Below, one piece after another: positions 1 through 60,600 of a stretch of DNA of 64,000 nucleotides; the first letter of the stretch is position 1; every line of letters starts with the position of its first letter. The notes beneath the pieces were generated by a model. It searched no databases. It was not told where the DNA came from and saw only the letters and a program-made list of their open reading frames with translations. Location of the stretch: contig CP154954.1 in assembly GCA_039621445.1 (NCBI GenBank), positions 18,524,642 through 18,588,641 of the forward strand. The letters run 5' to 3'. The position numbers and the translations under genes were made by a program. This stretch comes from Euglena gracilis (Eukaryota).

Positions 1-501
1 AGTTCAAGCGCATCCCCTAATGGAAGCCCCATGCCCAGGCACATGCCCATATTGCAGGTATGTGTTTCCACCAACGACCATTAAGTACATGATGTTCACT
101 TTTCGAGGCTTTCGCCGCCGCATCTCCACGTGGGCTTGCCGCACACCGGCCCCCCCTCCCCCGCCTCCAATCGAACCCAAGCACCCTCACCTCACCTCAC
201 CTCACCCTCCAAGCGGTCCCAAATATGCACATTTGTACTATTACTCGTTAGCCGATGAGAAATCCACAGGGTCCTCACACCACCTACCTCTGGCATACCA
301 TTCCAGACCGCCAACCATGCTTTTTTCAACAACAAAAAAACCTGAGGTGCCTTGTGCTATGGGATGCCTGCCCACAGCAGGCATCCCCCCACAGGATCCC
401 AATGCTTGCTGACCAAGCCAGATTTCCTTTTGGGCCTTTTGGGGGCCCAGTGCCGAAGGCGGGCGGTGTGCCATCGCGCTGCCCAAGGCCCACCTCACAA
501 C

Positions 502-6518: not shown

Positions 6519-6558
<40 letters not shown>

Positions 6559-13249: not shown

Positions 13250-13500
13250 TATGTGTAAACATACATGTATACATGTATGCTTTTATGTGTATCCATGTGC
13301 AAAAACATGTAATCATTTATATGCATATACCAAAAAAAAAAAACGTGTGCATTTTTATGTATATGAATGGGATATATACATATATACCATATATATAGAT
13401 ATATATATATATATATATCCCATATATAGATATATATATAGATATAATACATACATATGTATGCATTGCAATATTGTATTGCAATGCATACATATGTATA
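13250..13500. repeat. (AT)n-rich tract with a 23-bp-arm hairpin at 13451-13499; duplicate ~19565-19820
   Basis: ATACATATGTATGCATTGCAATA-ttg-TATTGCAATGCATACATATGTAT. Confidence 0.85.
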
Positions 13501-15239
13501 TGAACTGCACCGCCTAAGCACTGCTTCGGTTTCGGTGCAGGTAGCCGAAACTTCTCACCTCTCTTCAGACAGATGGGTTGGAGGCTGCCCAGATTTTCTC
13601 ACACTTCGCACGAGTTTCCGGCAGTGTTGCTAAATTGACCCCACCACTGGTCAGGTCAGAGTCAAGCCACCACTGGGGAAAATGGCACACGTGGAGCTGA
13701 GCAGACAGAGGCACTGGTTGTCCAGAGACGCTGTTCATTGGGAGGGAGGGCGGTCGTACGAGGAAGCAGAAGCAGAAGTTCCAAGATGGGAAGGGGAAAA
13801 CCCTGCGGAACTGGTGTGGAACAACGGCGCCAAAAACGTGACGTTGGTACAAAAATGTGACGTTGGCACAAAAGGCAGATGCCCGATCACACCAGCTCCC
13901 AAAGCATCGAGGCAAAACTGAGTGCAAATGGAATATCGGCTCTAACTTCCATGGCAAAAAGTTTTCAATGATGACGGCCTTTGCTCGTCACTTTTTCCAA
14001 TGGACACCATCAAAAAAAAAAAACGTACCGCTCGGCCACAGGGCCACAGGGGGAAACAGAATGGGTGTTGTAACAGTTGCAAAGTCTGTAGGGCACCCAA
14101 ATACTCAGCGTAAAGGATTCTGGCCCATGCGTTGAACGGGGTTCAACCTTCTTTTCAAGACCTCTCAAAACTCCCACTCATTTTTGGATGTTTTCCACAA
14201 AAGCCCACCTAAGTTGTAAATCATCTTGGGTTTCAACTCAATTTTTAAGAAGGACAATTGCAGGTGACCCAACAAAAATCAAGACCATAAAAAAGGAGCT
14301 GGTAAAAACTGTCAAAAAATATTACATGTCCAAAAGACAACTGACTGCCTTTTTGGGGCCAATTTCCAGCACTGCACGCCGCAAATGTTTGGCTGGACCC
14401 CAGTTGGAGGCTCCACCCCAGACCTGGAGGGGTCATGTAGGTGTTCAGTGAGTCTATGGTCTTGACTAAGGTGTGACTGAAACCAGGACAAAACATAATA
14501 CTTGGAACTTTCCTCGGACATGGCAGAGATTCAGCAGTATGGCTCATGCTTGTGTTTACCGACCGGGGGGGAGGGGGGTGGGTGGGTGCTCTAGGGTGCC
14601 TGCCCCTAGCAGGCACCCCCCCCCTGGGGGGGTCTGGGGGGACCCAGATTCCATTGAAAATGGCCTTTTCCGGGCCCCCGGCGCCTTTGGCGCCAGGGTC
14701 GGAGGGGGGTGCCTGCTATGGGCAGGCACCCCCCAAATTCCTACCCCCCCCCGGGGGTCGGATGGGGTGCTATGGGGTGCCTGCCCCTAGCACCCCCCCC
14801 CCCCGTGGGGTAGGCACCTGACTAAGCACAAGCCTGGTATGGCTGCACCAAACGTGCTGCATGGGACTGAGAGACGTCGAAGTGGATTCTTGGCACTTTC
14901 CACCGGAGAGGTCTGTTGAAACGGTTTTTGACAGAAAAGTCTCGTGGTTGACAAAAAAATGGATTCAAAAAGTTATCAGGTTTTATTTAAAAAAAAAACA
15001 TGAACCAACGTTTCCCGGTTCGATTTCGGACAGGACCGTTACACAAGCGTGCCACAGGCGTGCTATGGAAACCTTCGTAAGCCCCTACCAGCGCCAGTCC
15101 CCCTCCCCCGAGTCAAAGGTCTCCCGAAGTGACACATATGCAATGCAGTTTTCAAGGTCGGTCTCGAACTTGCCCCCCCATGCGATTCGATCTTGTCCCA
15201 GGCATGATCGAAGAGCCAACCGGGGTTAAAATTTGATTT

Positions 15240-16140
15240 TAGGAATTACTGGCGGGCCATGTGCAGCATTGGCTAAAAAGCATAAAAGTGGGAGGGGAGG
15301 TCACAAGTTGAGGTCAAAGTCCAAACCCCGGGGGCCAACTTTGCATGTAAGGAGGAGGGGGGCAAGTGTGTGGGCGTGGGCGGGTGGGTGCTGGTGAGTG
15401 GGTGTTGGGGTGGGTAGGTGTATTCACTTCCCTTTCTTTCCTTTAGAAGAAACCAGTGCATACCAATGGTGGTTTCGGTTGTGATTGTGGTTGTGGCTGT
15501 TGTGGTTGTTATTTTGGTTGTTGTCGTTATGGTTGTGATTGTTGTTGTGGTTGTGGTTTTGGTTGCCGTTGTTGTTGTTGTTGTTATGGTTGTGGTTGCG
15601 GTTGTTGTTGTTGCTGCTGCTGCTGCTGCTGGTGCTGTTGTTGTTGTTGTTGTTGCGTGATTATCTCCACAAAGATGCCACAAAGATTGCAAAGCAACAA
15701 GGGGGTGCTTGAAATACCCCGCGCACTCTTGGCAGACAGACTGCAGCACTCAAACTGTGGACTGAACAAGCAATCCAAATATCAATTTCACTTTTCAAAG
15801 TGTACAAACGGCTGGAGAAAAATCATCCAGAATCCCGCACTGGAGACCAGGCACGTGAGGCGCAAGGCAGGGGAAACCACCACGTCAAAAATTGTGTGTT
15901 TCAACGACAGATTTAACACTCCCGTGTTACGTGCACGCAGGCCTCCCCATATGCTCATGTCTGAGTTACGATGCCATAGGGAGTACCCCCTGTGGGGGCC
16001 CTTGCCCCCAGATCTTGCCCCCCTCCTCCTTACATGCAAAGTTGGCCCCCTGAGTTTGGACTTTGGCCTCAACTTGTGACCTTCCCTTCCACTTTTAGGC
16101 TTTTTAGCCAACGTTGCGCATGGCCCGCCGGAAATTATCA
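15240..16140. mobile_element. Long-TIR (~125 bp) foldback element enclosing a (GTT)n/(GCT)n tract; duplicate at ~21560-22460
   Basis: 15240-15365 is the reverse complement of 16014-16140 (GGCGGGCCATG...AACTTTGCATGTAAGGAGGAGGGGG). Confidence 0.7.
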
Positions 16141-17258
16141 ACACCGAACTTGCCCAGCATTCCAGTGTGCCAGTCGCAGTACAACAAAAAGCTTAAATCC
16201 GAAAATGAGCCGCCCAAACCACCTCCTACTTTTCAACCCCAGGGTTTACAAGATCTGGTTTGGTTGGTCGGTCGAAGGAGGGTTTATAAATAGGGAGGGG
16301 GGCGTAAGTCAAGGAATTCAAGGCATTCAAGGGATAAGTCAAGGAAAACCCAACCCCAAAATGACTCCAAAACTCCCCCAAATTGGAAAATTTTGGCAAA
16401 AGTTGTCAAAATTTCATTTTTGATGACCATCCATTCCAAAAAAAAAAACGCCAAATCATTTTTCGGAGGTTTTGCGGCCAAAAAAAAAATCGTCCCCGGT
16501 CTTTCATTTCGCTTCTGAAAGGTTTGGCTGGTCGGCCTGTAGGGAGCCGGTAGGGAGGGGGGTTATAAATGGGAGGGTTATAGGTCATAAATGGGGCGGG
16601 TTCATAAGTAAACCCCGCCCCCCTCACTTTTAACCCCCCCACTTATAAACCCCCCCCCCCGGGCCGACCAACCAAACTGGATCCTATAACCCCCCCAGGA
16701 AGAAAAATGGAAACCGCCGGAGACGATTTTTCCGGCCCCAAACCACCCAAAAACTGGTTTTTTGGCAATTTTTTGAGACCGACCATCATCATCAAAAAAA
16801 TGCCATTTTTGACCAAATTTGCCGAAAATTGTTAATTTGGGGGGTTTCGGGGTGATTTTGGGGGGTCGGATTTTCACCAACACTTCCGGATCCTATAAAC
16901 CAGGTTTTGAACAGTGCTGAGCTCTTAATAAACGCTCACCCACCCCTTCATTGACGCCCCCAAAAGAGTGGGTTGACAGCCCAAACCGGGGGGCGTTGGC
17001 GGGTCGAAAAACGCTCATTTTTCGGCCCAAAAACAGTTCTTTTGGGTCCGGGACGCCAAAAAAACATCGTTTCAGGCAAAAAAAATTTTCGATTTTTTCG
17101 ACTTTTTTTGACCCGAAAATCACCCAAAGTCAATGGGTTGGCGGCCCAAAACGAACGCTCATTTTCGGCTCAAAAACAAATTTTCCGGGTCCGGGAGGCC
17201 AAAAAACAGCGTTTCAGGCCGAAAAATTTTTCGATTTTTTTCGATTTTTTTTTGACCC

Positions 17259-17508
17259 GATGCGCATCATGGGTCATGATGGGCATCACGGGTCAGGATG
17301 GGCATCATGGGTCACGATGCGCATTACGGGTCACGATGCGCATCATGGGTCATGATGGGCATCATGGGTCATGATGCGCATCATGGGTCATGATGCGCAT
17401 TATGGGTCATAATGGCCATCATGGGTCATGGTGGCCATCATGGGTCATGATGCGCATCATGGGTCATGATGGGCATCATGGCCATCATGGGTCATGATGA
17501 CCGTGATG
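17259..17508. repeat. 19-bp tandem repeat ATGGGTCATGATGCGCATC; duplicate 23589-23858
   Basis: About 13 contiguous units, no spacers. Confidence 0.9.
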
Positions 17509-17517
17509 GGCCGGGGG

Positions 17518-17751
17518 CAGGGTTCGATATAAGGAGAGGAGGGGTGGTCCGGACCCCCCTGCGGGCCAGGAGGGGGGGGGGGTGGGGGTAGACCCCCCCA
17601 CCTAAACAGTGGCGCTGTCTGGGTGACCGAATTTCGGCCCGGTGCGAAGAGCCGGGCCTAAAATTTTTGACCCCCCAAAACGACCAAAAGTGCCATTTTG
17701 GGCACTTTTTGGGCAAAATGTGCAAAAAATACAAAAAATTTTCGCGCGCAA
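17518..17751. mobile_element. hAT-like MITE family A, cut by the assembly gap (duplicate of 23867)
   Basis: Left TIR with flank GCCGGGGG; ends at the N run. Confidence 0.8.
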
Positions 17752-18747
17752 NNNNNNNNNNNNNCCGCAGAGAAACGAGTTTATCCCTAAGAACAGGAAC
17801 CATATTTTTTTGTGCAAAATGTTATGTGGTTTGCACCGTGTTGCACGTTTCTGAGACAAAAAAACTGCACCTGCCATGGATTTTAATACCTCCCCCCTCC
17901 TGGGGCGCTTGGCCCGGGCCAAGCTCGAACCAAAGCGAAGGTAAGGCCCATGGTTGCCAAGTTTCATTGTTAAGAAGTTTGGCGGCCATGAAGAATGAAG
18001 GCCAACTTTGCAGCTTTGGGGAGCCAAGTTTGCATGTAAGGAGGAGGGGGGCCAAGCGCCGGGGGGCGGGGGAGGTGGAGGAACTGTTCAAGATAGATGC
18101 AACACATTCCGTGACCAAAGTTTTGCATCCAAAACAAACAGACAAAATGCTTTGCCAAATAATACCCCCTCCCAGATGGGGGTATCATCATCCCTTGGCA
18201 GGGGGGGAATATCATTTGGGGGCTTATTTTTTTCAATAAAATTAGATGGTCACGGTTTGGGTACGTACACATCCAAATACACATATGCACCAATATACAC
18301 CACCTCAAAACCACTTCAACCACTCGACCACCCGACCACCTCAAAACGGCAGCGGACGAGGGCTGTCAACTGTGGCCTCGCAGCAGTCCCCAGAAGGTCG
18401 CTCCCCAGAAGAGGCCAGCCCCAACCCAAAGCACCCCGTTCCACTTGGTGCAAAGAGGCTGGAGGAAGGGAGGACGACGTGGGGTGCCGCAGGGCGGAGG
18501 CCAGGGTACAGTCCCGAGGGGGAAGACCCGGTACAAATATGCAGGTTGCTGGATATGGGGATGGTGGGCGTCAGTGGTGCCGAGCCATGAGGGCCCAGAA
18601 ACCTGCTTCATTTCAGTGCAAAGCCATTCACAAGTTTGCACAAAGGCATCGGATGGACGCATTTTGACAGGACCACGGGTTTTTTTAGGACCCCCCAGAA
18701 AAAAAGGTGCCGGGCGAACACCCCCCCCAGGGGTGGTGGGTCCAGGG

Positions 18748-19137
18748 CAGGGTTCGATATAAGGACAGGTGGGGGGGGGGGTCTGGACCCCCTGCGGGCC
18801 AGGAGGGGGGGGGGGGGTGGGGGGGACACCCCCCCCACCTAAACAGTGGCGCGGTCAGGGTGACCGAAAATTTTTGACCCCCCAAAACGACCAAAAGTGC
18901 CATTTTGGGCACTTTTTGGGCAAAAATTTGCCAGAAATGCAAAAAAAATTATCGGCGCAAAGCGCCAGAGGAAAAAGTTGACCCTTTTGGGGGGGGGGGG
19001 GGCCGGGGGACCCCCCCAGGGTCGGTCCGGACCCCCCTTGCAGGTGGGGGGGGGGGGTCCAAACCCCCCTGTGGGCGAGGGGGGGGGGGGGACACCCCCC
19101 ACCTAAACCATGTACGCCCTCCTTATATAAAACCCTG
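18748..19137. mobile_element. hAT-like MITE family A (duplicate of 12429)
   Basis: TIRs and TSD GTCCAGGG. Confidence 0.88.
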
Positions 19138-22100
19138 GTCCAGGGGGGGGGGAGGTGCGACCGGCTGGGAGCTGGAGCCGGCAAGAAACCAAAAAAGGCC
19201 CAAATTCAGTAGGGTTGCCATTTGTCAGCCAAAATTTGGAGGTGAAAACCCAACAACCACCAAAAAAATGCCATTTTTGATAATTTTTGACCCCTTTTTC
19301 AAAAACTTTCAGTACTTTGCGCCGAAAATTTTTTCGGTCTAGCCTGGCTTTGCTGGGCTGGCCCGGACGTTATTTCAGCAGACCCCTGGGGGCAGCCAGT
19401 AGGGAGGTGCTGGCTTGAAAAAAAAGGTGCTGGGTGGCTGCCCTCCCCCCGGGAGGGGGAAGTATCCCCTCAGGCTTGGGAAAAATCCTGGACGTACGAC
19501 TCTGTCTTTTGCAGGTAGAGCCCTGAGGTTGTGGGGACACGCTCGTCGCTTTTCTTCCGGCCACATGTATGTGTAAACATACATGTATACATGTATGCTT
19601 TTATGTGTATCCATGTGCAAAAACATGTAATCATTTATATGCATATACCAAAAAAAAAAAACGTGTGCATTTTTATGTATATGAATGGGATATATACATA
19701 TATACCATATATATAGATATATATATATCTATATATATCCCATATATAGATATATATATAGATATAATACATACATATGTATGCATTGCAATATTGTATT
19801 GCAATGCATACATATGTATATGAACTGCACCGCCTAAGCACTGCTTCGGTTTCGGTGCAGGTAGCCGAAACTTCTCACCTCTCTTCAGACAGATGGGTTG
19901 GAGGCTGCCCAGATTTTCTCACACTTCGCACGAGTTTCCGGCAGTGTTGCTAAATTGACCCCACCACTGGTCAGGTCAGAGTCAAGCCACCACTGGGGAA
20001 AATGGCACACGTGGAGCTGAGCAGACAGAGGCACTGGTTGTCCAGAGACGCTGTTCATTGGGAGGGAGGGCGGTCGTACGAGGAAGCAGAAGCAGAAGTT
20101 CCAAGATGGGAAGGGGAAAACCCTGCGGAACTGGTGTGGAACAACGGCGCCAAAAACGTGACGTTGGTACAAAAATGTGACGTTGGCACAAAAGGCAGAT
20201 GCCCGATCACACCAGCTCCCAAAGCATCGAGGCAAAACTGAGTGCAAATGGAACATCGGCTCTAACTTCCATGGCAAAAAGTTTTCAATGATGACGGCCT
20301 TTGCTCGTCACTTTTTCCAATGGACACCATCAAAAAAAAAAAAACGTACCGCTCGGCCACAGGGCCACAGGGGGAAACAGAATGGGTGTTGTAACAGTTG
20401 CAAAGTCTGTAGGGCACCCAAATACTCAGCGTAAAGGATTCTGGCCCATGCGTTGAACGGGGTTCAACCTTCTTTTCAAGACCTCTCAAAACTCCCACTC
20501 ATTTTTGGATGTTTTCCACAAAAGCCCACCTAAGTTGTAAATCATCTTGGGTTTCAACTCAATTTTTAAGAAGGACAATTGCAGGTGCCCCAACAAAAAA
20601 TCAAGACCATAAAAAAGGAGCTGGTAAAAACTGTCAAAAAATATTACATGTCCAAAAGACAACTGACTGCCTTTTTGGGGCCAATTTCCAGCACTGCACG
20701 CCGCAAATGTTTGGCTGGACCCCAGTTGGAGGCTCCACCCCAGACCTGGAGGGGTCATGTAGGTGTTCAGTGAGTCTATGGTCTTGACTAAGGTGTGACT
20801 GAAACCAGGACAAAACATAATACTTGGAACTTTCCTCGGACATGGCAGAGATTCAGCAGTATGGCTCATGCTTGTGTTTACCGACCGGGGGGGAGGGGGG
20901 TGGGTGGGTGCTCTAGGGTGCCTGCCCCTAGCAGGCACCCCCCCCCTGGGGGGGTCTGGGGGGACCCAGATTCCATTGAAAATGGCCTTTTCCGGGCCCC
21001 CGGCGCCTTTGGCGCCAGGGTCGGAGGGGGGTGCCTGCTATGGGCAGGCACCCCCCAAATTCCTACCCCCCCCCCGGGGGTCGGATGGGGTGCTATGGGG
21101 TGCCTGCCCCTAGCACCCCCCCCCCGTGGGGTAGGCACCTGACTAAGCACAAGCCTGGTATGGCTGCACCAAACGTGCTGCATGGGACTGAGAGACGTCG
21201 AAGTGGATTCTTGGCACTTTCCACCGGAGAGGTCTGTTGAAACGGTTTTTGACAGAAAAGTCTCGTGGTTGACAAAAAAATGGATTCAAAAAGTTATCAG
21301 GTTTTATTTAAAAAAAAACATGAACCAACGTTTCCCGGTTCGATTTCGGACAGGACCGTTACACAAGCGTGCCACAGGCGTGCTATGGAAACCTTCGTAA
21401 GCCCCTACCAGCGCCAGTCCCCCTCCCCCGAGTCAAAGGTCTCCCGAAGTGACACATATGCAATGCAGTTTTCAAGGTCGGTCTCGAACTTGCCCCCCCC
21501 ATGCGATTCGATCTTGTCCCAGGCATGATCGAAGAGCCAACCGGGGTTAAAATTTGATTTTAGGAATTACTGGCGGGCCATGTGCAGCATTGGCTAAAAA
21601 GCATAAAAGTGGGAGGGGAGGTCACAAGTTGAGGTCAAAGTCCAAACCCCGGGGGCCAACTTTGCATGTAAGGAGGAGGGGGGCAAGTGTGTGGGCGTGG
21701 GCGGGTGGGTGCTGGTGAGTGGGTGTTGGGGTGGGTAGGTGTATTCACTTCCCTTTCTTTCCTTTAGAAGAAACCAGTGCATACCAATGGTGGTTTCGGT
21801 TGTGATTGTGGTTGTGGCTGTTGTGGTTGTTATTTTGGTTGTTGTCGTTATGGTTGTGATTGTTGTTGTGGTTGTGGTTTTGGTTGCCGTTGTTGTTGTT
21901 GTTGTTATGGTTGTGGTTGCGGTTGTTGTTGTTGCTGCTGCTGCTGCTGCTGGTGCTGTTGTTGTTGTTGTTGTTGCGTGATTATCTCCACAAAGATGCC
22001 ACAAAGATTGCAAAGCAACAAGGGGGTGCTTGAAATACCCCGCGCACTCTTGGCAGACAGACTGCAGCACTCAAACTGTGGACTGAACAAGCAATCCAAA

Positions 22101-23244
22101 TATCAATTTCACTTTTCAAAGTGTACAAACGGCTGGAGAAAAATCATCCAGAATCCCGCACTGGAGACCAGGCACGTGAGGCGCAAGGCAGGGGAAACCA
22201 CCACGTCAAAAATTGTGTGTTTCAACGACAGATTTAACACTCCCGTGTTACGTGCACGCAGGCCTCCCCATATGCTCATGTCTGAGTTACGATGCCATAG
22301 GGAGTACCCCCTGTGGGGGCCCTTGCCCCCAGATCTTGCCCCCCTCCTCCTTACATGCAAAGTTGGCCCCCTGAGTTTGGACTTTGGCCTCAACTTGTGA
22401 CCTTCCCTTCCACTTTTAGGCTTTTTAGCCAACGTTGCGCATGGCCCGCCGGAAATTATCAACACCGAACTTGCCCAGCATTCCAGTGTGCCAGTCGCAG
22501 TACAACAAAAAGCTTAAATCCGAAAATGAGCCGCCCAAACCACCTCCTACTTTTCAACCCCAGGGTTTACAAGATCTGGTTTGGTTGGTCGGTCGAAGGA
22601 GGGTTTATAAATAGGGAGGGGGGCGTAAGTAAGTCAAGAAATTCAAGGCATTCAAGGGATAAGTCAAGGAAAACCCAACCCCAAAATGACTCCAAAACTC
22701 CCCCAAATTGGAAAATTTTGGCAAAAGTTGTCAAAATTTCATTTTTGATGACCATCCATTCCAAAAAAAAAAACGCCAAATCATTTTTCGGAGGTTTTGC
22801 GGCCAAAAAAAAAATCGTCCCCGGTCTTTCATTTCGCTTCTGAAAGGTTTGGCTGGTCGGCCTGTAGGGAGCCGGTAGGGAGGGGGGGGGTTATAAATGG
22901 GAGGGTTATAGGTCATAAATGGGGCGGGTTCATAAGTAAACCCCGCCCCCCTCACTTTTAACCCCCCCACTTATAAACCCCCCCCCCCCGGGCCGACCAA
23001 CCAAACTGGATCCTATAACCCCCCCAGGAAGAAAAATGGAAACCGCCGGAGACGATTTTTCCGGCCCCAAACCACCCAAAAACTGGTTTTTTGGCAATTT
23101 TTTGAGACCGACCATCATCATCAAAAAAATGCCATTTTTGACCAAATTTGCCGAAAATTGTTAATTTGGGGGGTTTCGGGGTGATTTTGGGGGGTCGGAT
23201 TTTCACCAACACTTCCGGATCCTATAAACCAGGTTTTGAACAGT

Positions 23245-24939
23245 GCTGAGCTCTTAATAAACGCTCACCCACCCCTTCATTGACGCCCCCAAAAGAGTGG
23301 GTTGACAGCCCAAACCGGGGGGCGTTGGCGGGTCGAAAAACGCTCATTTTTCGGCCCAAAAACAGTTCTTTTGGGTCCGGGACGCCAAAAAAACATCGTT
23401 TCAGGCAAAAAAAATTTTTCGATTTTTTCGACTTTTTTTGACCCGAAAATCACCCAAAGTCAATGGGTTGGCGGCCCAAAACGAACGCTCATTTTCGGCT
23501 CAAAAACAAATTTTCCGGGTCCGGGAGGCCAAAAAACAGCGTTTCAGGCCGAAAAATTTTTCGATTTTTTTCGATTTTTTTTTGACCCGATGCGCATCAT
23601 GGGTCATGATGGGCATCACGGGTCAGGATGGGCATCACGGGTCAGGATGGGCATCAGGGGTCACGATGCGCATTACGGGTCACGATGCGCATCATGGGTC
23701 ATGATGGGCATCATGGGTCATGATGCGCATTATGGGTCATAATGGCCATCATGGGTCATGGTGGCCATCATGGGTCATGATGCGCATCATGGGTCATGAT
23801 GCGCATCATGGGTCATGATGGGCATCATGGCCATCATGGGTCATGATGACCGTGATGGGCCGGGGGCAGGGTTCGATATAAGGAGAGGAGGGGGGGTGGT
23901 CCGGACCCCCCTGCGGGCCAGGAGGGGGGGGGTGGGGGGACACCCCCCCACCTAAACAGTGGCGCGGTCTGGGTGACCGAATTTCGGCCCGGCGCGAAGA
24001 GCCGGGCCGAAAATTTTTGACCCCCCAAAACGACCAAAAGTGCCATTTTGGGCACTTTTTGGGCAAAAATGTGCCAAAAATACAAAAAATTTTCGGCGCA
24101 AAGCGCCGGAGGAAAAAATTGACCCTTTTTGGGGGAGTCCCGGGTACCCCTTAGATGCCCGGGTACCCCCGGGTACCCCCCGAGGGTCGGTCCGGACCCC
24201 CCTGGCAGGTGGGGGGGGGGGGTGGGCCGGACCCCCCCTGCGGGCCAGGAGGGGGGGGGTGGGGGGACACCCCCCCACCTAAACCATGTACGCCCTCCTT
24301 ATATCAAACCCTGGCCGGGGGTCGAAAAACACATTTTTGGCTCGAAAACACTTTTTCCGAGTCCGGGAGGCCAAAAAGCATGGATTTGGGCAAAAAAAAA
24401 ATCGATATTTTTCGACTATTTTGGCCGAAAACGGCTTAGTCCACCAGTGGAAAAAGTGTACAAAATGGCCCATATTGGCCGAAAAACGGCCGTATCTCGG
24501 GCTACGCGAACAGTTGCGGGGAAATCAAAATGCCGGTAGATGGGGCGTTCCAAGGGCTTCAAATCAGGTCTCCGGACATTTCCTTTGATTTGGCTTCATT
24601 TTTGAGATATTTTGAAAATTGGCATTTTTTTTTGGCTGAAATGGCAGAGTCCAAAGGGGGGGGGGGCTTATCCAGGGGGGGGCGGGCCAATCCTACCCAG
24701 TTTGGACCCCTTCGCGCGTGAATAACTCCGGCCTGGCGGGGAGTTGGGGGTCAAACCCAGGTGATTCGGAAATTAGAAATCCAGTCACTCGCGTCTGGAA
24801 AAAAAAATCCAGGAACCAGGCCGGGATCATGGTGATAATCCGCCGGTTCCGAGGTGGCCCCGAGGGGGGGGGGGGGTTCGGGGGGGTTTTCCCCCAGGGG
24901 TAAGCTTCGCTCTTACCCATAAAGGGATAAGAGCTCAGC
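23245..24939. mobile_element. Element G (GCTGAGCTCTTA...TAAGAGCTCAGC) with a 19-bp tandem array and nested MITE A
   Basis: 12-bp TIR; inverted related copy at ~31680-33110; left part duplicated at 16915-17517. Confidence 0.65.
23867..24313. mobile_element. hAT-like MITE family A nested in element G
   Basis: TIRs and 8-bp TSD GCCGGGGG. Confidence 0.9.
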
Positions 24940-27900
24940 GACCCCCCCCGCACCTATAACCCCCCCCCCTTCGGCCGACCAACCAAACCGGATCCTATAA
25001 ACCCCGGGGGGTTTATAAGTGGGGGGGTATAAGATGCAGCCCTCCAACCCTCCAAACGATGCTGGACCAGCCTTCCAAGGAGTGGCCACGAACCCCACAG
25101 GACAGTCGGGTCTGGCCCTGCGAACATACCAGCCAGTTGCATTGCAAACAGCGCACAGGGAAACGCAACTGCCATTTGAACTGCTCGCAAACAATTAACA
25201 TACACGCAGGGGCTAGAGTCACTGTCTGGTGGGACCGTGACGACCCAACAACGATGGAATGGCCCGGAGGCTTGCATACACGTTGATCAGTCATCATTCA
25301 TCAGTCATCCTTTTATGAGAAGCCTTACCTCCACGTCATTTTGATACGAGTGTGAGAACACACCCAATCGACACAGCACACTGCAAAGATCAGGTTGCAG
25401 ATAGAAATGCAATGGAAATGCATAGCTGAACAACATCTGCGTGAATTCATTTTGAAGAACCAATAGAAAATGAGAAAAGAAATTGGGTGATCTCAGGCCA
25501 TTTTCTTTTACCTTGACCAAGTTCTTGCCTCCGCAGCCAGCGTTGCCAGGGGTTACCAGCATGTGTTGTTTGAAGCTGGAACTAAAAGACACCCACTCCA
25601 GCGTTGACCTCCTCTCCAACTTTCCCGGGCTGTCTTTTGAGTGGCAAAGCAAAAAGGTTCACAAACTGAAAAACTCTTACTTAAAAACTTTTACTCTCAC
25701 ACAACTATTTTTAGATTTGCCAGAGCCCTGTGGCAGAGCTTGCTGGGGTCTTCTGTGTGGGGCAGGGCTGTGCTGGTGTGCACACATCACAGCCCATGGG
25801 CTAACGTAGGCTTTGGGGCTTGGGGGTGAGCCTACCCACAAAACTTGAGGGTGAATAAAAACTTTCTGGCGCACTGTGTGTAAATTCAATTTAATCCAAA
25901 ACTCTCACCTGCTCATTGATCCCAACTGTTTGAAAATGAGAGTTTCGGCCCGGCTGAGTTCAACGGCTTTTGGGGGAGTGAATGTGACAGAAAAAAATGA
26001 TAAAACAAGAACGAACAATCAAAACCCCAAACGAAACCCAAGTTCAGCATTATTAATAAATTTTATTTATTTATTTAAATAAAATAAATTGGGGCAGGTC
26101 CAGGCATACAAAAAGGTCAAAAAAAACATGCTTTTTTCGATTTTTGTTTTGCCAAAAGCTTCAAAAGGGACAAACGTCATTTTTCCAAGCAGAAATTAAT
26201 TAAAAGGCAGAAAAAAAAGAGCTCAAAAACAACAAAACTTGCCAAAAGTTAAAAATAAAAACAGCAACAAAAGAAAGTGTTGATGTTACCACGTGCAGAA
26301 TATGTAAATGAACACAAATGAAATTTTTTTTCGTAAACAGACATTTATTTTTGTGGTTCACAATCCTTTGTCAACCACACGGAAACTGATCGAACAGAAG
26401 CCCAGGGGGGGGGGGGTGTTCAGAGAACATAAGAATAATGTCGGCAATTGGAAATCCCACCCTGCTGGAAAGGTGTGTCGTAAATGAGACATATACCAAC
26501 CAGGGTGCTTCTTTAACGCACCCCCCCCTGTGTGCACTGTGGCTGGGTTTTTTTATTGGTGCCTTTTATCCCTTCTTCTGGCCTGGCGCTGTTTTTCGCC
26601 TCTGGCCCATTCTGTCTGTGTACGTGGAGGTGGCCAGAGCCTGGCGGGACTTACCTTGTTCTACACCTTTTCGCCTCAGTGCTGCTCTGGCCTCTTGCCC
26701 TCTTCCCACTTTTCTGTGTGGGGGATGCATGGCGCAGACACAACGCCATGACTTGCAACGTTCCGGTGTGGCCCGTCCACGGTCCTGCGGCTTCGGTAAA
26801 CCCGGGTTTCCAAGTCTCGGCCTTTAGTGCAGGTGGCGGGTGGGTAGTGTGCTGCTGGGTACCAGTGGTTCCCTTACATACTGGTACCTGCGCTCCGTGC
26901 CCTGTCTGGGGTTGGTTTGGGCGGTCCGCTGCCTCGTGTGGGCCCCTCCTCCCCTGCTGGCTTCCACCTTTGGGGCACCCCACCCTGGGGGGGGGGGGGG
27001 GTGCACTATGGGTCAAGTTTCTGCCCGGCCGAAGGCCAGGCAGAAACAAAAGTTGAGCGTTTTTGGCCGATTTTGGCTGGAGTTTGGGTGGGTGGGTGGG
27101 TGGTTGACCCTGGGGGGTGAGGGGTTGTGGGCGGGGGTGGGTGGGTTTTCGAAAAAACTGGGTGAGTGGGTTTGGGCCGGGGAAAAAAAAAGTGACCCCC
27201 CCCCAAGGGGCTACCAAGTGAATTTATGGGCTGGATGGTAACGGTTTCAGAGGCACAAAAATGGCCAAAAAAATTGGTCAAAAATGAAAAATGGATGAAA
27301 ATGGGTCAGAAAAAGGCTGGCCAGGGCAAATTTGGGGTCAAAAATTGATCATTTGCATAATTCGCAGGTTTTTTGGTCAATTTTTGTGGTTTCTACTTTG
27401 GCACCCGGTTCGACCACAGGTCGGGCGCAGTTCCAGCCCAAGACCCAAACCCCCCGGGGTGGGGGTCAAACTTTCTGAAGCTACGCCCTGATGCCAACAA
27501 TCTCCACAAAAAAACGTTTTTTCCCCAGTCCGGGTTGTGGATTCAAGAAACAGGTTAGGCAGTGGATAACGTCAGCTTGGACACACGATTGGGGGGAATG
27601 CGAGGTGGAGGTGACACGTTCATGACCACAACACAACGCCGCGCACGCATCACTCCTTGAAAAACGCAGCGAAAGGGGAAAGCTTTAGGTTTTACCACCA
27701 TAAAGCCTCAGAACCTGCAAGGGAAAACGGGGTCCAGAACGACGTTGCAACCAGGCTATTTCTCCTTCGAAACGGTGAGAAGACAGGTCGCGAAGGAAAC
27801 CTTCCGCAAAGGGTGGGAGACCAGCAAAGTCTTCAGGTCGGTCGGACATCCCCCCGGCGGGTGCACAGCTCCCGGGTCGCCCAACCCGGGAAACAGCCTT

Positions 27901-28053
27901 CTCGCAGTCGCTGTTAGGAATATGGGCTGCGCCTTTCCGACGCTGCCGCAGGCCGGGAAAAGGGGGATGCCAGACGACCAAGGCAGGCGAGCATTAGACT
28001 CACCCACACGGGAGTGCTTTCAGTGGTACACCCGCGCACATGTGCGACGGAGC

Positions 28054-28332
28054 CAGGGGTTTTTCTTAAAGACCGGGGGGGAGGGGGGGGGGGGGTCGGC
28101 ACCCACCCACCCACCCCCTGGGGTGGGCCCCCCCGGGGGAGGGGGGGTCCCAGGGGACCCACCCAGTTTTGCCCAAAAATGCTAAAAATAGCACCTTTTT
28201 CAAAATTTTCCGAAAAAGATATACCCACCAGCCCGAACCCCCACCCCCCCCCCCCGGGGGGGGGGGGGCAAGGGACCCACCAACCCCCCCCCCCCCCGGG
28301 GGAGGGGGAGCAAGACTAAAAAAAAAACCCTG
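28054..28332. mobile_element. hAT-like MITE (CAGGG...CCCTG) in exon-like unique sequence
   Basis: TIR CAGGG(G)TTTTT...AAAAACCCTG; exact 8-bp TSD GACGGAGC (28046-28053, 28333-28340). Confidence 0.85.
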
Positions 28333-29933
28333 GACGGAGCGCGGAGCCCCCTCTCGCTGGTGCAAGAGAGGGGCTCGGCGACGGACAGGGCCGACCTGGC
28401 CAGCCCCGCTGCCAGGCCACTGACACGAGGGTTTGGCACGTATTTGGAGTGGCTGAAGGGGAAACCCTCAGCAGCTTGGGAAACGCATCACTTCTCCACT
28501 GCCGCAACCGTTGTATACCAACCAGAAGGCTTTTTTCCAAAATCTGGGCGATCGCCCTCCACCTCTGGGGGGGGGGGGGTGGACTTGGCAGCCACTTTTA
28601 GGGGGTGCTTTTTGTTCTTGGGAATGCCAAAAAAAATTACCCATCTTGAGCAGAGAAAATTGGAGGCACGCAACTCCTTTCCCGTGGCAAAAAAAAAACA
28701 GGTCGGCAGTGGGCAGGATGACATTTCTGCACCGTTGCCAAAGTGAACCATTTTCGGCCCAGCGCGAAGCACCGATCTCACACCAAAATCTCACACCAAA
28801 AATCCACCAAAAATTTCATTTTGGTACTTTGAAGTAGAAAGAAACTGGCGGGTGGGGGGTCCTGGGTATCCGCCCCTCTTCCCAGTCGGTCGGGAACTCC
28901 CTGTGGTCAGTTGGGGGGTCCGGTTCCCCATGGTGTCCCCTTGGCGGCAGGGAGGGTTCTCCCTGCCGTCAAAGTGACACCACGGGGTAATTTTGGGCTC
29001 TGCTTTATGCACTCCTGTTGATACCAGGGTGGAACTTGCAAAAACTGTCCAGGAGACTGCAGCCGTTGAGAAACAAGTCCATTGCGCATTAACAACCAGG
29101 CAGACTCTCTTTTCCTCAGTCCACCGTAATCCGTCCTGATCCTGGACTCCTCCCAGTGTGGTTCAACTCGCTGCTCCGTGTTTGGTGAGCCCAAAAAGTC
29201 CGGAGGCACAATAATGGCTTGCCTCGAACTGCATGGGGCAGACTTGTCAAGGGGTATTTTTTTTGGCTTGGGCACGAAATGCAGGGGTTTAGGGGCTTAG
29301 GTTTGTGACTGAAAGCACGGGGCTTTTTTCCAACATCCCACATTTCAAGGATGGTTTCCAGCAGGGTGGAGGAGGCAAATATCCACCGTGGACATCAATT
29401 TTCCTGCGGTGCCCAGGGATGGTTTGGTTTCGCTCCACAACGCCTTGGAGCCTTAGAGGGCGGTGTCTGGAAAAAGGGAGACCAATGTTGCAACCAGGTT
29501 TGATCAAAAAGCCACCCATTGACAGGAGACGGGACTCACATGGTTGACTTCGCACTTATCTCATAAAACTTGCCTGGCGCAATCGCACAATCGAAAAACG
29601 TTTCCGAGTTTATGGCCGTTTTGGGTCGCTTTCAGGTCCCAATTTTGCATGCAAACACGCGATCAAAACTTGCGAGAAAACACCCCCTGGAAATGGAGTT
29701 TGAAGGTTCCAATTCAAATCGCGAGAACAACATTGGAAAGCTTTGAAAGGAAACCCCCCCAAATACAAGCAACCCCTGGCGCCGATTTCGGAAACCCAAA
29801 TATAAGCATCCGGTTGCTTATATTTGAGGGCGGGTTCCAGCCTGTCAATCCACGGACTTACACATCCAGCACCCGGGAGCTGATCGTGAAGTTCACAGTT
29901 ATGAAGAGTATCCAGCCGGTGATTATGGATGCC

Positions 29934-30325
29934 CAGGGTTTGATATAAGGACAGGTGGGGGGGTGGTCCGGACCCCCCCCCCCCTGCGGGCCAGGAGGGG
30001 GGGGGACACCCCCCCACCTAAACAGTGGCGCGGTCCGGGTGACCGAAAATTTTTGACCCCCCAAAACGACCCAAAGTGCCATTTTGGGCACTTTTTGGGC
30101 AAAAATTTGCCAAAAATGCAAAAAAAAAATTCGGCGTGAGGCGCCGGAGGAAAAAAATGACCCTTTTGGGGGGTCCCGGGTACCCCCCCAGGGTCGGTCC
30201 GGACCCCCCTGGCAGGTGGGGGGGGGGTGGTCCGGACCCCCCTGCGGGCCAGGAGGGGGGTGGGAGTGGTGGGGGAGGACACCCCCCCATTTAAACCATG
30301 TACGCCCTCCTTATATCAAACCCTG
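29934..30325. mobile_element. hAT-like MITE family A
   Basis: TIRs and 8-bp TSD TGGATGCC. Confidence 0.9.
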
Positions 30326-30695
30326 TGGATGCCAGAATGGCCGTTTTTTTGGGACCGAAATGACAGGTTAGGGGTGTGCAGAACTCTGCCACCCTTTCGT
30401 CGCTGATTGGAAAGGTTCTAATTTGTGGTGCAAATCAAGAGCATACAACGCCAGACAGCAAAAAAAAATGAATGAATACCCGAACTCGTGAACATCCGAA
30501 ACTCACTCTGGAAAAAGGGGTTAACCGGAGGCATTTTTAACCAACCCAACTAGCTTTAAATCCTCAGCCATAAGAGTGACGAAGTTGCGGGCTTATTTCA
30601 AGGCATATAAATGAGGTGTCCAAAGAAGGGATTGCGAAGACCCCTTTTTTTCTGTCAGGCTGTACGAAATCGAAATCCCATTCCTGTCCAATGGC

Positions 30696-31126
30696 CTGGC
30701 ATTATTATTTTTAAGGCGCCATAAAAGCCTTAAAATGCCTTAAAATGTGCGTTAAAATTTTTGGTCAAAGTGCTTTAAAACGCCTTAAAATACCTCAAAA
30801 TGCCTTAAAAAAATTCAGATCGGCAGAATTTTCTGCGACCAAGCAAAAACGAAACCACAATCTTGGCAAAAGCAGGCCAATCCGGAAAGGAAAAATGATT
30901 CTGGCATCGTTGGAACATTGTCCATCCAGCCAAAACTAAAAGCATGTATTTTCAAATTTTTTTTGATTTTGGACGAACGTGTAAAAGCAAAAACGTTGGT
31001 TCAATGCCGAGACAGCCCTTGGACCGCTCTGGAAAATGGCGCTGGAAAATTTCTTAAAAAGCCTGAAAAAAAATGCCTTTTAATGCCTAAGGGGAAGGGG
31101 AGAAAATTGCCATATAACAATGCCTG
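30696..31126. mobile_element. MITE family C with (AAATGCCTTA)n; other copies 37093-37482 and ~47812-48363
   Basis: CAGGCATT/AATGCCTG-like ends; colinear similarity between copies; TSDs degenerate. Confidence 0.6.
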
Positions 31127-31679
31127 CCACAGCTGACGGATATGTAACAGGGTTGAAAATGCATTTCAGCGGAACATGGCATATGACACCCAATCATGCA
31201 TCTTTTTAAAAAGCAAAAGATCACACCAGGGAAAACTCCCAGTGAGGAGAAATCAACTAAACACCCCAATGAGAAGCCCCCCGCCCAATAACAACCCCCC
31301 CCCAAATAGAAGCCCCCCCCCCCCCCGGGTCTCCCGCCAAAAATCCAAATAACAGCAGCCCCCCCCCCCGACCAAGCCGGCCGACAAAGTTGACCAAAAA
31401 TTTTCCGAAAAATGGTGAAAAACTCCACGAAAACAGGTCGACATCGGGGAAAAAATTGATATCTGGCATCCTTGAAACATGGCCTATCCACCCAAACTCG
31501 AAAAAAATGCGTCTTGCAATTTATTAAATTTGGACCCCATTCGATCCCCAGATTGGCCGCCGGCCGAAGGTTTTTCCTTTAGACAAAAGGCACCCAATTA
31601 GAAATCGCCCCCCCCCTCGGGTTTTCCGCAGAGTGACCGAATAGCAGCCCCAGAGAGCCTCTAATTGGGGGGAGGGGTC

Positions 31680-33110
31680 GCTGAGCTCTTATCCCTTTAT
31701 GGGTAAGAGCGAAGCTCACCCCTGGGCAAAAGGGGGGGTCCACCCCCCCCCTCCCTCCCCCCCCGTCCCCTCGGGCCACCTCGGGAACCGGCGGATTATC
31801 ACCATGATCCCGGCCCCGTTCGCGGAAAAATTTTTTCAGTCGCAAGCGACTGGATTTCTAGTTATTGAATCACCTCCGTTTGAACCCCAACTCCCCGCCA
31901 GGCCCAAGTTATTCACCCGCGAAGGGTCCAAACTGGGTAGGATTGGCCCACCCCGACTCTGCCATTTCGCCTGGGCCCAAAAATCGGTCAAAAAAACGAT
32001 TTTTGGAAAATATCTTGAGAAAACGTACATTATTTCCGGAAATGTCGGTCTGACAAAATGTACCTCCGAAGGCCCTCTATCACCCCCCCCCATTCGCCGT
32101 TTTGGCCGCCGACACGCCTGGTCCGTGTTCCGGCGGGCTTTGCGGCCCAAAACGGCCATTTTGGGGTGTTTTTTTTTGGGTCGGTTTTCGGTCAAAAAAT
32201 CGATTTTCCCAAAATATCTCGACAACGAAGCAAAATCAAAGAAAATGCCCAGAGAGCAAAAAGGAAGCCCTTGGAATGCCCTTTCCCACCATGGTTGACT
32301 TTCCCCTCAAATCTTCGTGCAACCCGAGTTACGGTTATTTTTCAGCCCAATTTTGGCCCAATTCTGGGGCCATTTTGGCTGTTTTCAGGGTAAAAAACTG
32401 ATGTTTCCAAAATATCTCGAAAATGAAGCAAAATCAAAGGAAATGTCCAGAGACCTAAATTGAAGCCCTTACAATGCCCTATCTATCAGTATTTTGATTT
32501 CCCTGCAACTCCCTGCCTAGCCAAAAATATGGTCGATTTACGACCCAAAACAGCGCGGCAGGCTTGCTTGCGACTTAGCCGTTTTCAGCCCTGTTTTGGG
32601 TAAAAAAAAATCAATTTTTCTAAAATTTCTCAAAAATGGTGGGAATCAAAGGAAATGTCCGGAGACCTAAATTGAAGCACTTAAAATGCCCCATCTAACA
32701 ATGTTTTGTTTTCCCCGCAACTCCCTCACCTAGCCCGAGTTACGTTCATTTTTCGGCCCATTTTGGCCATTTTGTACAGTTTTGGCTTGTTTTGATTTGA
32801 CTTAGCCGTTTTCGGCCATTTTTGGGTCAAAAAAAGTCGAAAAAATCGGGGAAAAAAACTGCCCGAAACGATGTTTTTTTTGGCCTCCCGGACCAAAAAC
32901 CTGTTTTTGAGCCGAAAACGAGCGTTTTTCGACCCCCCGGCGCCCCGTTCTTGGCCCGAAACGCATGCGTTTTGGGTCAAACCCGGGTCAAAAAAGTCGG
33001 AAAAATCGAAAAAAAAAATTGCCCAGCACGACGGACCCGGAAAAACTGCTTTTCAGCCGAAAATGAGCGTTTTTCGACCCCCCCCCCAGCGCCCCGCATT
33101 TCCGAGCAGC
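31680..33110. mobile_element. Element G relative, opposite orientation
   Basis: 31674-31960 is the reverse complement of 24680-24945; 32820-33090 mirrors 23320-23590. Confidence 0.65.
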
Positions 33111-35285
33111 TTCATTTCCATGAAAATCAGGGGTTACATTACTCAGTCTGAAACAAGCATACTTGGGGGTAAAAAAAAACACACACACGCAAGAGCGAAC
33201 ATTGTTTCAACATCCCATCAAGTGGCAATGCTCCCCCTTGTCCTGCACGAGAAAGATGGGTTTTCCCAAATTCCCTCCTCCTGAAACCCCCTGAAAAAAA
33301 GATCCTTCTGTACGTCATCCACCCCCATCTACCACAGCCCGTCCCCTCTGGCCGGCCAGGAGTGCTGAATCTGGTGCCCTCACCACTCGGCCGCTCCGTC
33401 ACTTCGGAAACCCCAATGACTCTCTCCCCACCTGCCGGACCTCTCAGCCTCCCTAACTGGTGCACCATGGAATTTCTTCACTGGTCCCCACAGCTCCTGG
33501 TCCTAAAGTATGTGCAGAAAACAGCAAAAAAAGAGGCTTTTTCAAAAACCTCTTTTGCAGGCTTTTCGCCATTTTGAAGAACGAAATGGGGGCCTGTGTT
33601 TCACGAGGCTTTGGGCACGCTCCGAGGCTGCCAGCACAAAGGGAAAAAAGTGGTCCCAGGAACTGCCTCTCAGCCCCTTTTTCATGTTTTTTGGCATTCT
33701 CGGGCACAACATCGACTCTGCCGATCGCCGAATACGTGCCGCACGCCAAAAAAAGGGGGTTAGGCATCTCCCTGGGGCCACCAGCTGGCACGCCCCGGCC
33801 AAGTCGAAAACACAAAAAAAAGGGGTGGATCTCACTGTTTGCGACGAGAAACAAAACAGAAAAAAGGACTCTGTGTTTGAGCGACTGCATAAAGAAACCC
33901 TAAAAGCGTAACTGTCCAAGTGGGAGGGGGAGTCTGGTGTTGGAGTCTGTAGGGGGTCCATTTCTATAAATATAAAAAGAGGTGGACACTATTTTGCGAT
34001 TTTACGGCACCCTGGCTTAAGCGTCTCCTTCCGGCAGGGCTGTACGTGAAGGCCTGGTGGAGGGGTGGTCGGACCCCCTGAGAGAGGGTCGACCCCCACC
34101 CACCATGGCACCCGGTCAAAGCAAATTCCTTCAGTGCCTTCGGCGCCGGAGCCTGGCGGGTCTTACCTTGTTTACGACGCCGGCCGCCAGGCACACACTC
34201 CACTTTAGTTAGGGGGGGTCTCCTTCACCGAGACGACGCACCGGTTACTCCAGTCCACAACCCCAGCAGGCGTGGTTCCCAACTCAGTGAACAGGTCCAC
34301 TCAAGTGGCAACAAACTCATCGGCGTGTTCCAGGCCCGGAGACACCTCCCGGGGCAGCCCTGTCCCACAAGCACACCCACTTGGAACCCGGTCAGGCACC
34401 CCCCCCCCCCCCGGGGTTGTCGACTCCCCCCACCCACCACCCACAGGGTTGCGGGGAATCCCATACAGCTGCCTTCCAGCCAGCCCTTCAAATTTGAATT
34501 ACACCATCGGCAAACGCCACCAAATGTGCTTTGTTGCATGTTCCCTCCATTACCCCACCCATTACCCCACCCCATTCGGCGGACTTTTGGGGTATGATGT
34601 CCGCGTCGGTCCACCTGTTGGGTCACCGTCAGTGACCTGGATGCCTGCTCGACCGGACAGCGACCTACGGCAGCCGATGGCAGCGCCACAGGAGGAAGGA
34701 GGGGTGGCGGGGAGGGGGGGGGGGTGGTTTCGAGCAGCGCTGGAGTCAGCGGCGGTCATCATTTGGGGCACCGCTGGGGTCAGTGGGGACCATCCCCCTC
34801 CAAGGTGTCATTGCCTTGGGTTCTTCTGGAGGTCCCTTATACGCTGTTAAAACATGTAAAAGGAAGCATTTTATTAAGATGCTTTAACGTTTCAGGTGTG
34901 TCTTTTTTTTATAAAAAAAACAGGAAATGCATCTTTTCCTGAACTTGAACTTGAACTTAATTGGAGTAAAGTCCCAGGTTGGCCAAAACCAAAACAACGA
35001 CTAAAGCAAAACAAAAACTAAAGCCAGGTTGGTTTGCAAAGGGGTTCTATGGGTGGTCAGGGGCAGGGGAGGGGGGTGAGGGCTGAAAGAACGAAGGCTG
35101 GTTCACCACGGGGGTCATGTTTCCCCACTCGGGAGACAATTTCAGGTGGAACCCCGGCCATATTCCATATTCCCCAAAGAACTTTGTTCCCGACAGCTTC
35201 GGCCGACCATTTTGTGGCCCATCCTTTGAAAATGCTAACCACATCATTGCAATTGCTTTCATTTGCATGCAAAAAAAAAGATGAG

Positions 35286-35480
35286 TAAACCCCCCCAAAT
35301 AACACCCCCCCCCCCCGGTGTGTTATTTGGGCACCCGAACTGGGGTCCCAAGGGGGGGGGGGTGTTATTTGGGGGGGGTGTTATTTTTACATGTAAAACC
35401 AAAGGAAAACAGGGGTGTGTTATTTCGGCGCTTGAAATCGGCCCCCGAGGGGGGGGGTGCGTTATTTAGGGGGGGGGGTA
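35286..35480. mobile_element. TA-flanked MITE (CCCCCCAAATAACAC...GTTATTT..GGGGG); second copy ~36346-36567
   Basis: Inverted terminal motifs and two similar copies. Confidence 0.55.
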
Positions 35481-37559
35481 TTTGGTTATTTGGGAGGGGC
35501 GTTTATAAATATAATGAGTTGGGTAGATTGAAACGAGGTAAATGTTCCAAAAAAATAACTGTTCTCCACCAAAACTTACCCAACTCCAGTGGTCAAAAAG
35601 TGCTGAATAGGAGATGGGAGGAGCGATTTTCCGTCTCGCTGTAAATGATGTGGCTGGATTGGCTAGAGGGCGCCGAGGGTGGATGTGGCTGAATTGGCTA
35701 TCCCCCCCCCCGAATAAATGCGCGGGGCCTCTTCAAGCGCAGGGTTCAAATAGAAACGCACTCCCTGCTGCTGAAGGCGGCGGTCCAGGAGAATTAAATG
35801 CGAATCAAAAAAAAGAATACAGTTATTATTTATTTTCAAAAGTAGTGTGACGTACAACGTGCATGAAAAAAGAAAGCGCTTTGTCTTGTTTTGCCAAAAA
35901 AAAACAAGACCTCCAAAAAACCTCCCCCCCCCCCCGGGCTGATCATGCAAAAATCAATAATAAAGACCCTCCCCAAATTTTAACAGATTGAAGTGCCAGC
36001 GGCGAAAAACTTCCTGGAGAGTTGCTGAAAATCCCAATTCTATTCTCAAAAATGATGCAAATTTCAATGCTTTTTGGGGTTTTTTTGAGAACAAAATATT
36101 ATCATGCAAATCTCAAATTTATGCCAATTTGCACATGGTGCAAATACTGAAGAAAAAAATGTTGGTTCTTTTGGGAATCTGAAAATTGATGACTCTCTCC
36201 AGCCCCGGGTCAGTCAACGAAAATCCAAAATTAGAGTCCATGGAAATTTCCAGCAATGGACCCAAAAATCAGACCCGAGCCTTATTTGGGGGGTTATGAC
36301 TTGAATGCAAAAGGGCATCTGGTTATTGTGAGGAATAACGTTAGATAACCCCCCCAAATAACACACCCCCCGGTGTGTTATTCGGGCACCCGAGCTGGGG
36401 CCCGGGGGGGGGGGTGTTATTGGGGGGGGGGGTGTTATTCTTACATGGAAAACCAAAGGAAAACAGGGGGGGGTGTTATTTGTCATGTGTTATCGAAAGC
36501 GGCCCCCGAGGGGGGGGTGTCATTTGGGGGGGTTATTTGGGAGGGAGATTTACGACTAGGGGGGTAATTTGCACACAAAAAGGGGGTGGCATACCTGGGT
36601 GAGACGCATGGCACAAGACACCCCCTTCCCCTCCGCCGGTTGGTGAAAAGGGGGGGGGACGGTTTCTGGCTTCGCTGAAACATTTGTCTATCCACCCAAA
36701 ACTCAAAAAATGATGATTTTTTTGAAATTTTTGATTTTCAACCTGGACCGACTTAGTTCAGTAAAATTTTATAAATTTGTAGATTTTGCAGTTTTGCACA
36801 GCCGCAACCAGAAACGTTCCAGAGGAGGTCAGGTGGGGGACTATTGGGAGCCAATGCGTCTCGAGATTTCGGAACAAATTTTCCAAAATTCTTCGTGTGA
36901 GTCCGATCAAATTCATTTCTTTAGCACGTGCTGAACCTCAATGGTTTCGGAGGCGACATGCCAAGACAGTCGTGACTCGCCCCACCTACGCCCCCCAACG
37001 AAGTTGCAACCAAATAATTAAAAATGACCCATGACCACATAAAAGGCACTCTCGAAAACAAAACGTCCTTTGGGGTATTTCCGACCAACACCCAGACATG
37101 ATTATTTTTAAGGCACCATAAAAACCTTGAAATGCCTTAAAATGGGCCTTGATAATTTTGGTCAAAATGCCTGAAAATGCCTTAAAATGCCTGAAAATGC
37201 CTTAAAATGCCTTAAAGAAAATTCAGACCAGCAGAATATTCTCCAATCGAGCAAAAACAGCCGAACTCTGGAGAAAAAAATGATTTCTGGAATCACTGGA
37301 ACTATTTAACGAAAACTCAAAAGAAAGATTTTGGTTTTGGATGAACGTGCAAAATAAAAAACGTTGGTTCGATAAGGGACAGCCCTTTGACCGCCCTGAG
37401 AAAAAAAATGTGCCTTAAAAAGACTTAAAATGCCTTAAAAAGCCTTAAAAAATAAATTGGCCTTTAAAAAAAAATAATCCTGCTAGCGCCCTTAAAAAAC
37501 CCCCTGGGACGATTTTCAGGAACCCCAACAAGGCACGGTTTCTTAAATTGTGGGGGGGG

Positions 37560-50986: not shown

Positions 50987-60600
<9,614 letters not shown>

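Follow-up and report, generated by a model that had tools for sequence, protein, structure and literature searches.

How the nonconventional introns of euglenids originate has long been an open question, and the locus described here, a short insert that carries signals of a nonconventional intron, is valuable as an exemplar for it. An origin of nonconventional introns from MITEs was proposed in 2014, in a paper which noted that no transposable element had yet been identified in euglenid genomes (PMC3935182). The idea was repeated in PMC6221363, in the discussion of PMC12501133 and in PMC12621601, and whether the transposon theory holds is still asked in papers of the field (PMC6221363). In the Fig. 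3D legend of a 2024 review, CAG/CTG at +4..6 and -8..-6 are read as TIR and the junction repeats as TSDs (PMC11282704). The transposon origin contained in the original prediction for this locus is thus less new than it might appear.

The window analysed here is a stretch of 64,000 nucleotides of Euglena gracilis (assembly GCA_039621445.1, contig CP154954.1, positions 18,524,642 to 18,588,641 of the forward strand), and all coordinates below are positions in it. The locus at 28046-28340 raises two questions: whether the insert is a mobile element, and whether it could be removed from RNA as an intron.

The insertion at 28046-28340 and related elements

An exact 8-bp direct repeat, GACGGAGC, was located by 8-mer repeat scan at 28046-28053 (left TSD copy) and 28333-28340 (right TSD copy), enclosing a 279-bp insert at 28054-28332. 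The bases outside both copies are unlike on either side, so the length of the duplication is exactly 8 bp. The insert starts with CAGGGGTTTTT and ends with AAAACCCTG, giving CAGGGG...CCCTG termini, and 12 of the 14 outermost bases are inverted-complementary between the left TIR (28054-28067, plus strand; CAGGG followed by a T run) and the right TIR (28319-28332, minus strand; an A run followed by CCCTG). The 8-bp TSD and the CAG...CTG ends were therefore present exactly as the original prediction described them. The insert is non-coding, without a long frame of its own, has a GC content of 0.66, and is full of homopolymer runs of G and of C, between which lies an A/T-rich core (28164-28235, minus strand). 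This core holds a short hairpin (28190-28215), which is also found in the core of the MITE family described below (e.g. 30070-30110). In the core alignment, differences between the candidate and the family appeared by eye to fall at paired positions of the hairpin stem.

We scanned the window for exact 8-mer pairs lying 30-5000 bp apart around CAG...CTG. Eighteen pairs were found, of which 12 lay in tandem arrays or consisted of low-complexity 8-mers and six were clean elements. When the spacing was set to 50-1500 bp, 13 exact pairs were found, six of them with a TIR of at least 11/14. In 30 block-shuffled versions of the window, pairs enclosing CAG...CTG at this spacing averaged 0.53 per shuffle, and none in any shuffle had a TIR of at least 11/14 (0/30). 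The six TIR-bearing elements correspond to five independent insertions, and their TSD positions were identical at 40 of 40. Because six TIR-bearing pairs in the window stand against none in 30 shuffles, it was confirmed that the TSD-flanked CAG...CTG element is far beyond chance.

The five other clean elements make up one family of 390-470 bp with CAGGGTT(C/T)GATATAAGGA ends and exact 8-bp TSDs. All of them lie on the plus strand, the candidate being in minus orientation relative to them. They were found at 502-968 (TSD CTCACAAC at 494-501 and 969-976), 12429-12819 and 18748-19137 (both with TSD GTCCAGGG; the same insertion, the latter a duplicate 94% identical to the former), 23867-24313 (TSD GCCGGGGG), and 29934-30325 (TSD TGGATGCC; TIR 14/14). 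A partial copy on the same strand, at 17518-17738, ends just before an N gap (17752-17764). Since its left flank and TSD are common to 23867-24313, these two copies represent one insertion that was duplicated. Both pairs, 12429/18748 and 17518/23867, arose by tandem duplication of about 6.3 kb, with flank and TSD common within each pair, and the candidate is therefore one of five independent CAGGG-type insertions in the window (four besides it). At the borders of the tandem unit, which lies at about 11000-23830, a 19-bp repeat forms arrays (17259-17481 and 23589-23830), and duplication of the unit copied the two MITE insertions complete with their TSDs.

Identity among the family copies was 73-85%, while their TSDs were perfect. 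The insertions thus look young relative to the diversification of the family, which points to recent insertions and a recently active family.

When the core of the candidate was aligned in minus orientation with the family cores, three copies scored 37-40 and the fourth 27. Shuffled core alignments averaged about 14.5, with an sd of about 2, so that the relationship is significant. The candidate and the family also have in common the CAGGGTT end, the architecture of G runs and C runs, and the A/T-rich core. Compared with the window by BLAST, the candidate gave low-complexity matches at G/C runs only, and no second full copy or copy of its own subfamily was found there. We read the candidate as a short, diverged relative of the 390-470-bp family, and because a copy of its own subfamily is absent from the window, its status as a multi-copy element leans on this distant link. 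A metagenome scan with the 18-nt terminus of the family returned 17 loci, each matching only over an 18-22-nt seed or over 15 nt elsewhere. They were rejected as family copies, since a match confined to the seed is attributable to chance.

Could the configuration be a chance 8-bp repeat around low-complexity G/C runs, or an assembly artefact, with no mobile element at all? G and C homopolymer runs do dominate the insert, and at these short-read contigs break and RNA reads mis-align. DNA contigs of run X1, which may itself be the source sample, extend no further than 28 and 14 letters into the element and then break at the G/C runs (short of the 31-letter bridging rule). Against this stand the 30 shuffles, none of which gave such a configuration, the ends and core that the candidate has in common with a family of cleanly bounded elements, and the presence of 65-72% of the sequence words of the surrounding 10 kb in 14 DNA runs. 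We consider an explanation by chance or artefact extremely improbable, and the insert is treated below as a mobile element.

Further elements and repeats were observed in the window. An unrelated second element, about 292 bp long, occurs at 14545-14836 and 20867-21157, the two copies having arisen via the tandem duplication. It has an exact 8-bp TSD, GTATGGCT, and the ends CATGCTTGTG...CACAAGCCTG. A possible 1047-bp element at 35319-36365 has inverted ends matching at 13/14 (TGTGTTATTTGGG...) and the 8-mer CCCCCCGG on each side; as this 8-mer is of low complexity, the element may be due to chance. Very long GT/AC-type microsatellites lie at 5134-6603 (about 1.5 kb, imperfect) and 56228-56625 (398 bp, 99% matches), both strongly skewed in GC and AT. 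Neither Rfam at gathering thresholds nor ARAGORN gave a match in the window.

Short TIRs that start with CAG, an 8-bp TSD, small size and absence of coding sequence are the usual hallmarks of non-autonomous hAT elements. The TSD of hAT type, 8 bp long, was exact at the candidate (8/8) and at all five independent CAGGG-type insertions (5/5), and the short TIR with a CAG/TAG start was found as CAGGG...CCCTG (12/14). A Pfam scan of 20 window ORFs, including both flank ORFs, returned no family, and no transposase was found among them. From the TSD and the ends, we infer that the element belongs to hAT. The earlier description of the insert as a hAT-like MITE gained support from these hallmarks and also from the real family of such elements around it. 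To assign a superfamily from TSD length and a terminal trinucleotide alone is weak, and with no transposase in the 20 ORFs the element might belong to another superfamily with TSDs of about 8 bp, its CAG ends being coincidental. That alternative is unlikely in view of the duplication of exactly 8 bp in five of five independent insertions and again in the second family (14545-14836), and of the short CAG-initial TIR, as is typical of hAT. We retain the assignment to hAT in what follows.

Fit to the nonconventional-intron code

The code of nonconventional introns was defined by knock-ins in Euglena gracilis as N3-CDG ... CH'G-N5-6 | purine by Nomura et al. in 2025. The donor spacer is strictly 3 nt, the acceptor spacer is 5 nt with 6 nt tolerated, base pairing adjoining both motifs is required for splicing, and the synthetic introns assayed there were 50 bp long (PMC12501133).

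The candidate element together with one 8-bp TSD satisfies N3-CDG...CH'G-N5-6|R on both strands. The predicted register on the minus strand is GTC CAG ... CTG GCTCC | G (28049-28335), and an equally valid register on the plus strand is AGC CAG ... CTG GACGG | A (28051-28337). Both are 287 nt long and are based on code match and fold, and neither had RNA support. By arithmetic, excision in either register removes 287 nt and restores the pre-insertion sequence. The original prediction had noticed that the 3 + 5 spacer nucleotides add up to the 8-bp TSD in the minus-strand register of 287 nt, and this arithmetic is correct. Its reading of the minus strand stood insofar as the code is matched there, but the match is not restricted to that strand, since the plus strand complies equally.

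Wherever CAG...CTG ends are combined with an 8-bp TSD, the spacing of the code follows automatically, so that one further condition is left: a purine at position 6 of the TSD, which applies in the transcribed orientation. Among the five independent elements, nine of the ten strand-orientations comply with the code, and only 29934-30325 read on its minus strand does not. In the five independent TSDs (starting at 494, 12421, 23859, 28046 and 29926), the plus strand always had a purine at position 6 (5/5) and in four cases a pyrimidine at position 3, which makes up the 9/10 orientations that follow the purine rule. A palindromic target preference that would supply the purine of the code is hinted at, in a sample of five that is far too small. 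The second element of about 292 bp has CAT instead of CAG at one end, so it fails the published code on both strands.

In the minimum-free-energy folds, a terminal stem including CAG/CUG was present on both strands, and the z-scores of the whole sequence were -3.1 and -2.2. In these predicted structures the TIR would supply the stem, in agreement with the role that it had been assigned. Since the code is matched and the ends pair in the fold, we infer that the element could be spliced. Our proposed mechanism is as follows. A 279-bp MITE would have inserted into single-copy GC-rich DNA and created the 8-bp TSD. The element, together with 3 nt from one TSD copy and 5 nt from its counterpart, would then constitute cis-signals for non-spliceosomal splicing, and removal at the RNA level would bring back the pre-insertion sequence.

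Transcription and coding signal at the locus

Three RNA raw-read runs carrying the same species label and one DNA run were aligned to 23840-37100. The RNA sample comprised about 5-6 in 100 of the reads of each run, or 34 million records in total, which is about one ordinary library. A test of this size has power for moderately expressed genes, and a rare or condition-specific transcript could escape it.

In the unique flanks, RNA depth was 0.2-0.6 at 27384-27826 and 0-0.04 at 28713-29598. It was about 0.4-1.6 in the bin 28270-28712, which takes in the G/C-rich end of the element itself. No RNA joint in 23840-37100 reached the listing threshold in the three runs. The aligned RNA reads were mostly partial matches (551/573, 313/330 and 316/334) and lay at G/C runs and repeats. 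In the bin 27827-28269 the depth was 12-14; we rejected it as a sign of transcription, because the reads behind it aligned only in part and their loose ends, at 28075, 28095, 28238 and 28268, consisted of G or C runs. The same three RNA runs showed no detectable transcription of the family copies at 23867 and 29934 either. The splicing of 287 nt that had been expected at this locus was thus not seen in the three-run check, which gave no joint over flanks with a depth of 0-0.6.

Two other RNA signals were noticed in the aligned region. At 24512-24551, 40 nt were covered by 20 RNA reads in run X21 and at least 12 in run X22, which on both sides ran into the same foreign sequence (agreement 0.94-0.99), seemingly because these few letters match an abundant transcript of another locus. 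At 26498-26940, run X24, a size-fractionated RNA, reached a depth of 7 on one strand. Its reads differed consistently from the window at 26867, 26897 and 26907 and shared a loose end behind 26936, so that the signal looks like that of a transcribed paralogous repeat copy, not of the locus itself.

The sequence on both sides of the insertion had been called unique, GC-rich and exon-like. The first two terms were well founded: the flanks are single-copy, with no second copy in the window and a DNA word depth of about 160-400 versus up to 10^5-10^6 in repeat bins, and their GC content is 0.61 and 0.59 versus 0.52 for the window. The third was not borne out. Neither flank ORF had a Pfam family, and a protein search with the left-flank ORF, restricted to candidates of 72-230 aa, gave 21 candidates with none at E<=0.001; as for RNA, the depth was in the range of 0-0.6 given above. 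When the element was removed in silico, a 217-codon open frame spanned the junction on the plus strand. Open frames of such length are common in several frames throughout the GC-rich window.

The element might be a working nonconventional intron, belonging to a weakly or conditionally expressed gene or to a non-coding RNA. Every published cis-requirement is satisfied on both strands, the ends pair, the flanks are unique and GC-rich, and the 217-codon plus-strand frame runs across the repaired junction. The flanks, however, had an RNA depth of 0-0.6 with no joint in three RNA runs. Their ORFs had no Pfam family, the left one was without a significant homologue, and similar frames are found all over the window. 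A working intron is therefore very unlikely here.

We concluded that the feature is probably one insertion of a 279-bp non-autonomous hAT-type MITE, which fits the cis-signals of an intron and lies in DNA without detectable transcription. As a locus, it is an ordinary and apparently intergenic MITE insertion: a candidate source of introns, not a shown intron.

Intron origin and comparison with known systems

The window suggests a more general proposal, which we put forward tentatively, with the balance leaning somewhat against it: that the nonconventional introns of euglenids arise largely as insertions of hAT-type MITEs, their 3-nt and 5-nt spacers together being the 8-bp TSD, so that removal exactly reverses insertion. 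If this is true, an exonic insertion with a purine at TSD position 6 would be silent from the start. The +4/-8 register of CAG/CTG and the 'slidable' junction repeats of most introns would be explained, as would the 8-nt repeat of a newly gained intron and the fact that these introns outnumber the conventional ones. Several predictions would follow. Young introns would consist of a family member plus 8 nt in the 5+3 register, the longest junction repeats would stop at 8 nt, and a knock-in of an element with its TSD would be silent, while one with a 7- or 9-bp duplication would not.

What the transposon theory had lacked, and the window supplies, is recently active MITE families that fit the 2025 code without further mutation. 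In our literature search, which covered main texts (relevant supplements may bear on the point), no statement was found that 3+5 equals the hAT TSD length, no mention of hAT was found for these introns, and no actual euglenid MITE family was found described. In the paper on the chromosome-level genome of E. gracilis, the words MITE and hAT are absent. The window thus gives a sharper and testable form of the published MITE-origin hypothesis, which it supports without proving.

The candidate resembles hAT MITEs in its 8-bp TSD, its short and imperfect CAG-initial ends, its small size and its lack of coding capacity, and its relatives form several dispersed copies in the window. It departs from them in its interior, where an A/T-rich core is set between long runs of G and of C. 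Another parallel is maize Ds, a non-autonomous hAT element that is removed from mRNA after insertion into a gene. Giroux et al. reportedly observed in 1994 that Ds was spliced from mRNA as a de novo intron; that removal is said to be spliceosomal and not to reverse the insertion precisely.

The introners of Micromonas and other algae are alike in being DNA transposons with TIR and TSD, of which the element and one TSD can be removed from RNA, and this removability is the reason why their exonic insertions are tolerated (PMC11282704). Introners use the spliceosome, with GT/AG provided by the element or the TSD (PMC11282704), whereas the candidate route would be the non-spliceosomal pathway of euglenids. 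They also form large families inside genes (PMC11282704), whereas the copies at 23867, 28054 and 29934 lie outside detectably transcribed DNA. With the nonconventional introns of Euglena (PMC12501133), the candidate has in common N3-CAG ... CTG-N5 | purine and the pairing adjacent to the motifs, on both strands. Those introns are defined by their removal from transcripts (PMC12501133), whereas at the candidate no transcript or joint was seen; in addition, the synthetic introns were 50 bp long (PMC12501133), compared with 279 bp for the highly structured candidate.

A comparison for a fresh insertion is provided by intron 4 of gapC in Euglena agilis strain ACOI 323, which is strain-specific and recently gained and has 8-nt direct repeats at its junctions, longer than those of the other introns analysed there (PMC4770533). 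The authors attributed the repeats to double-strand-break repair (PMC4770533). A recent insertion that created an 8-bp TSD would be expected to leave just such a junction repeat of 8 nt. By this analogy, gapC intron 4 would be an independent data point of the kind that the hypothesis predicts.
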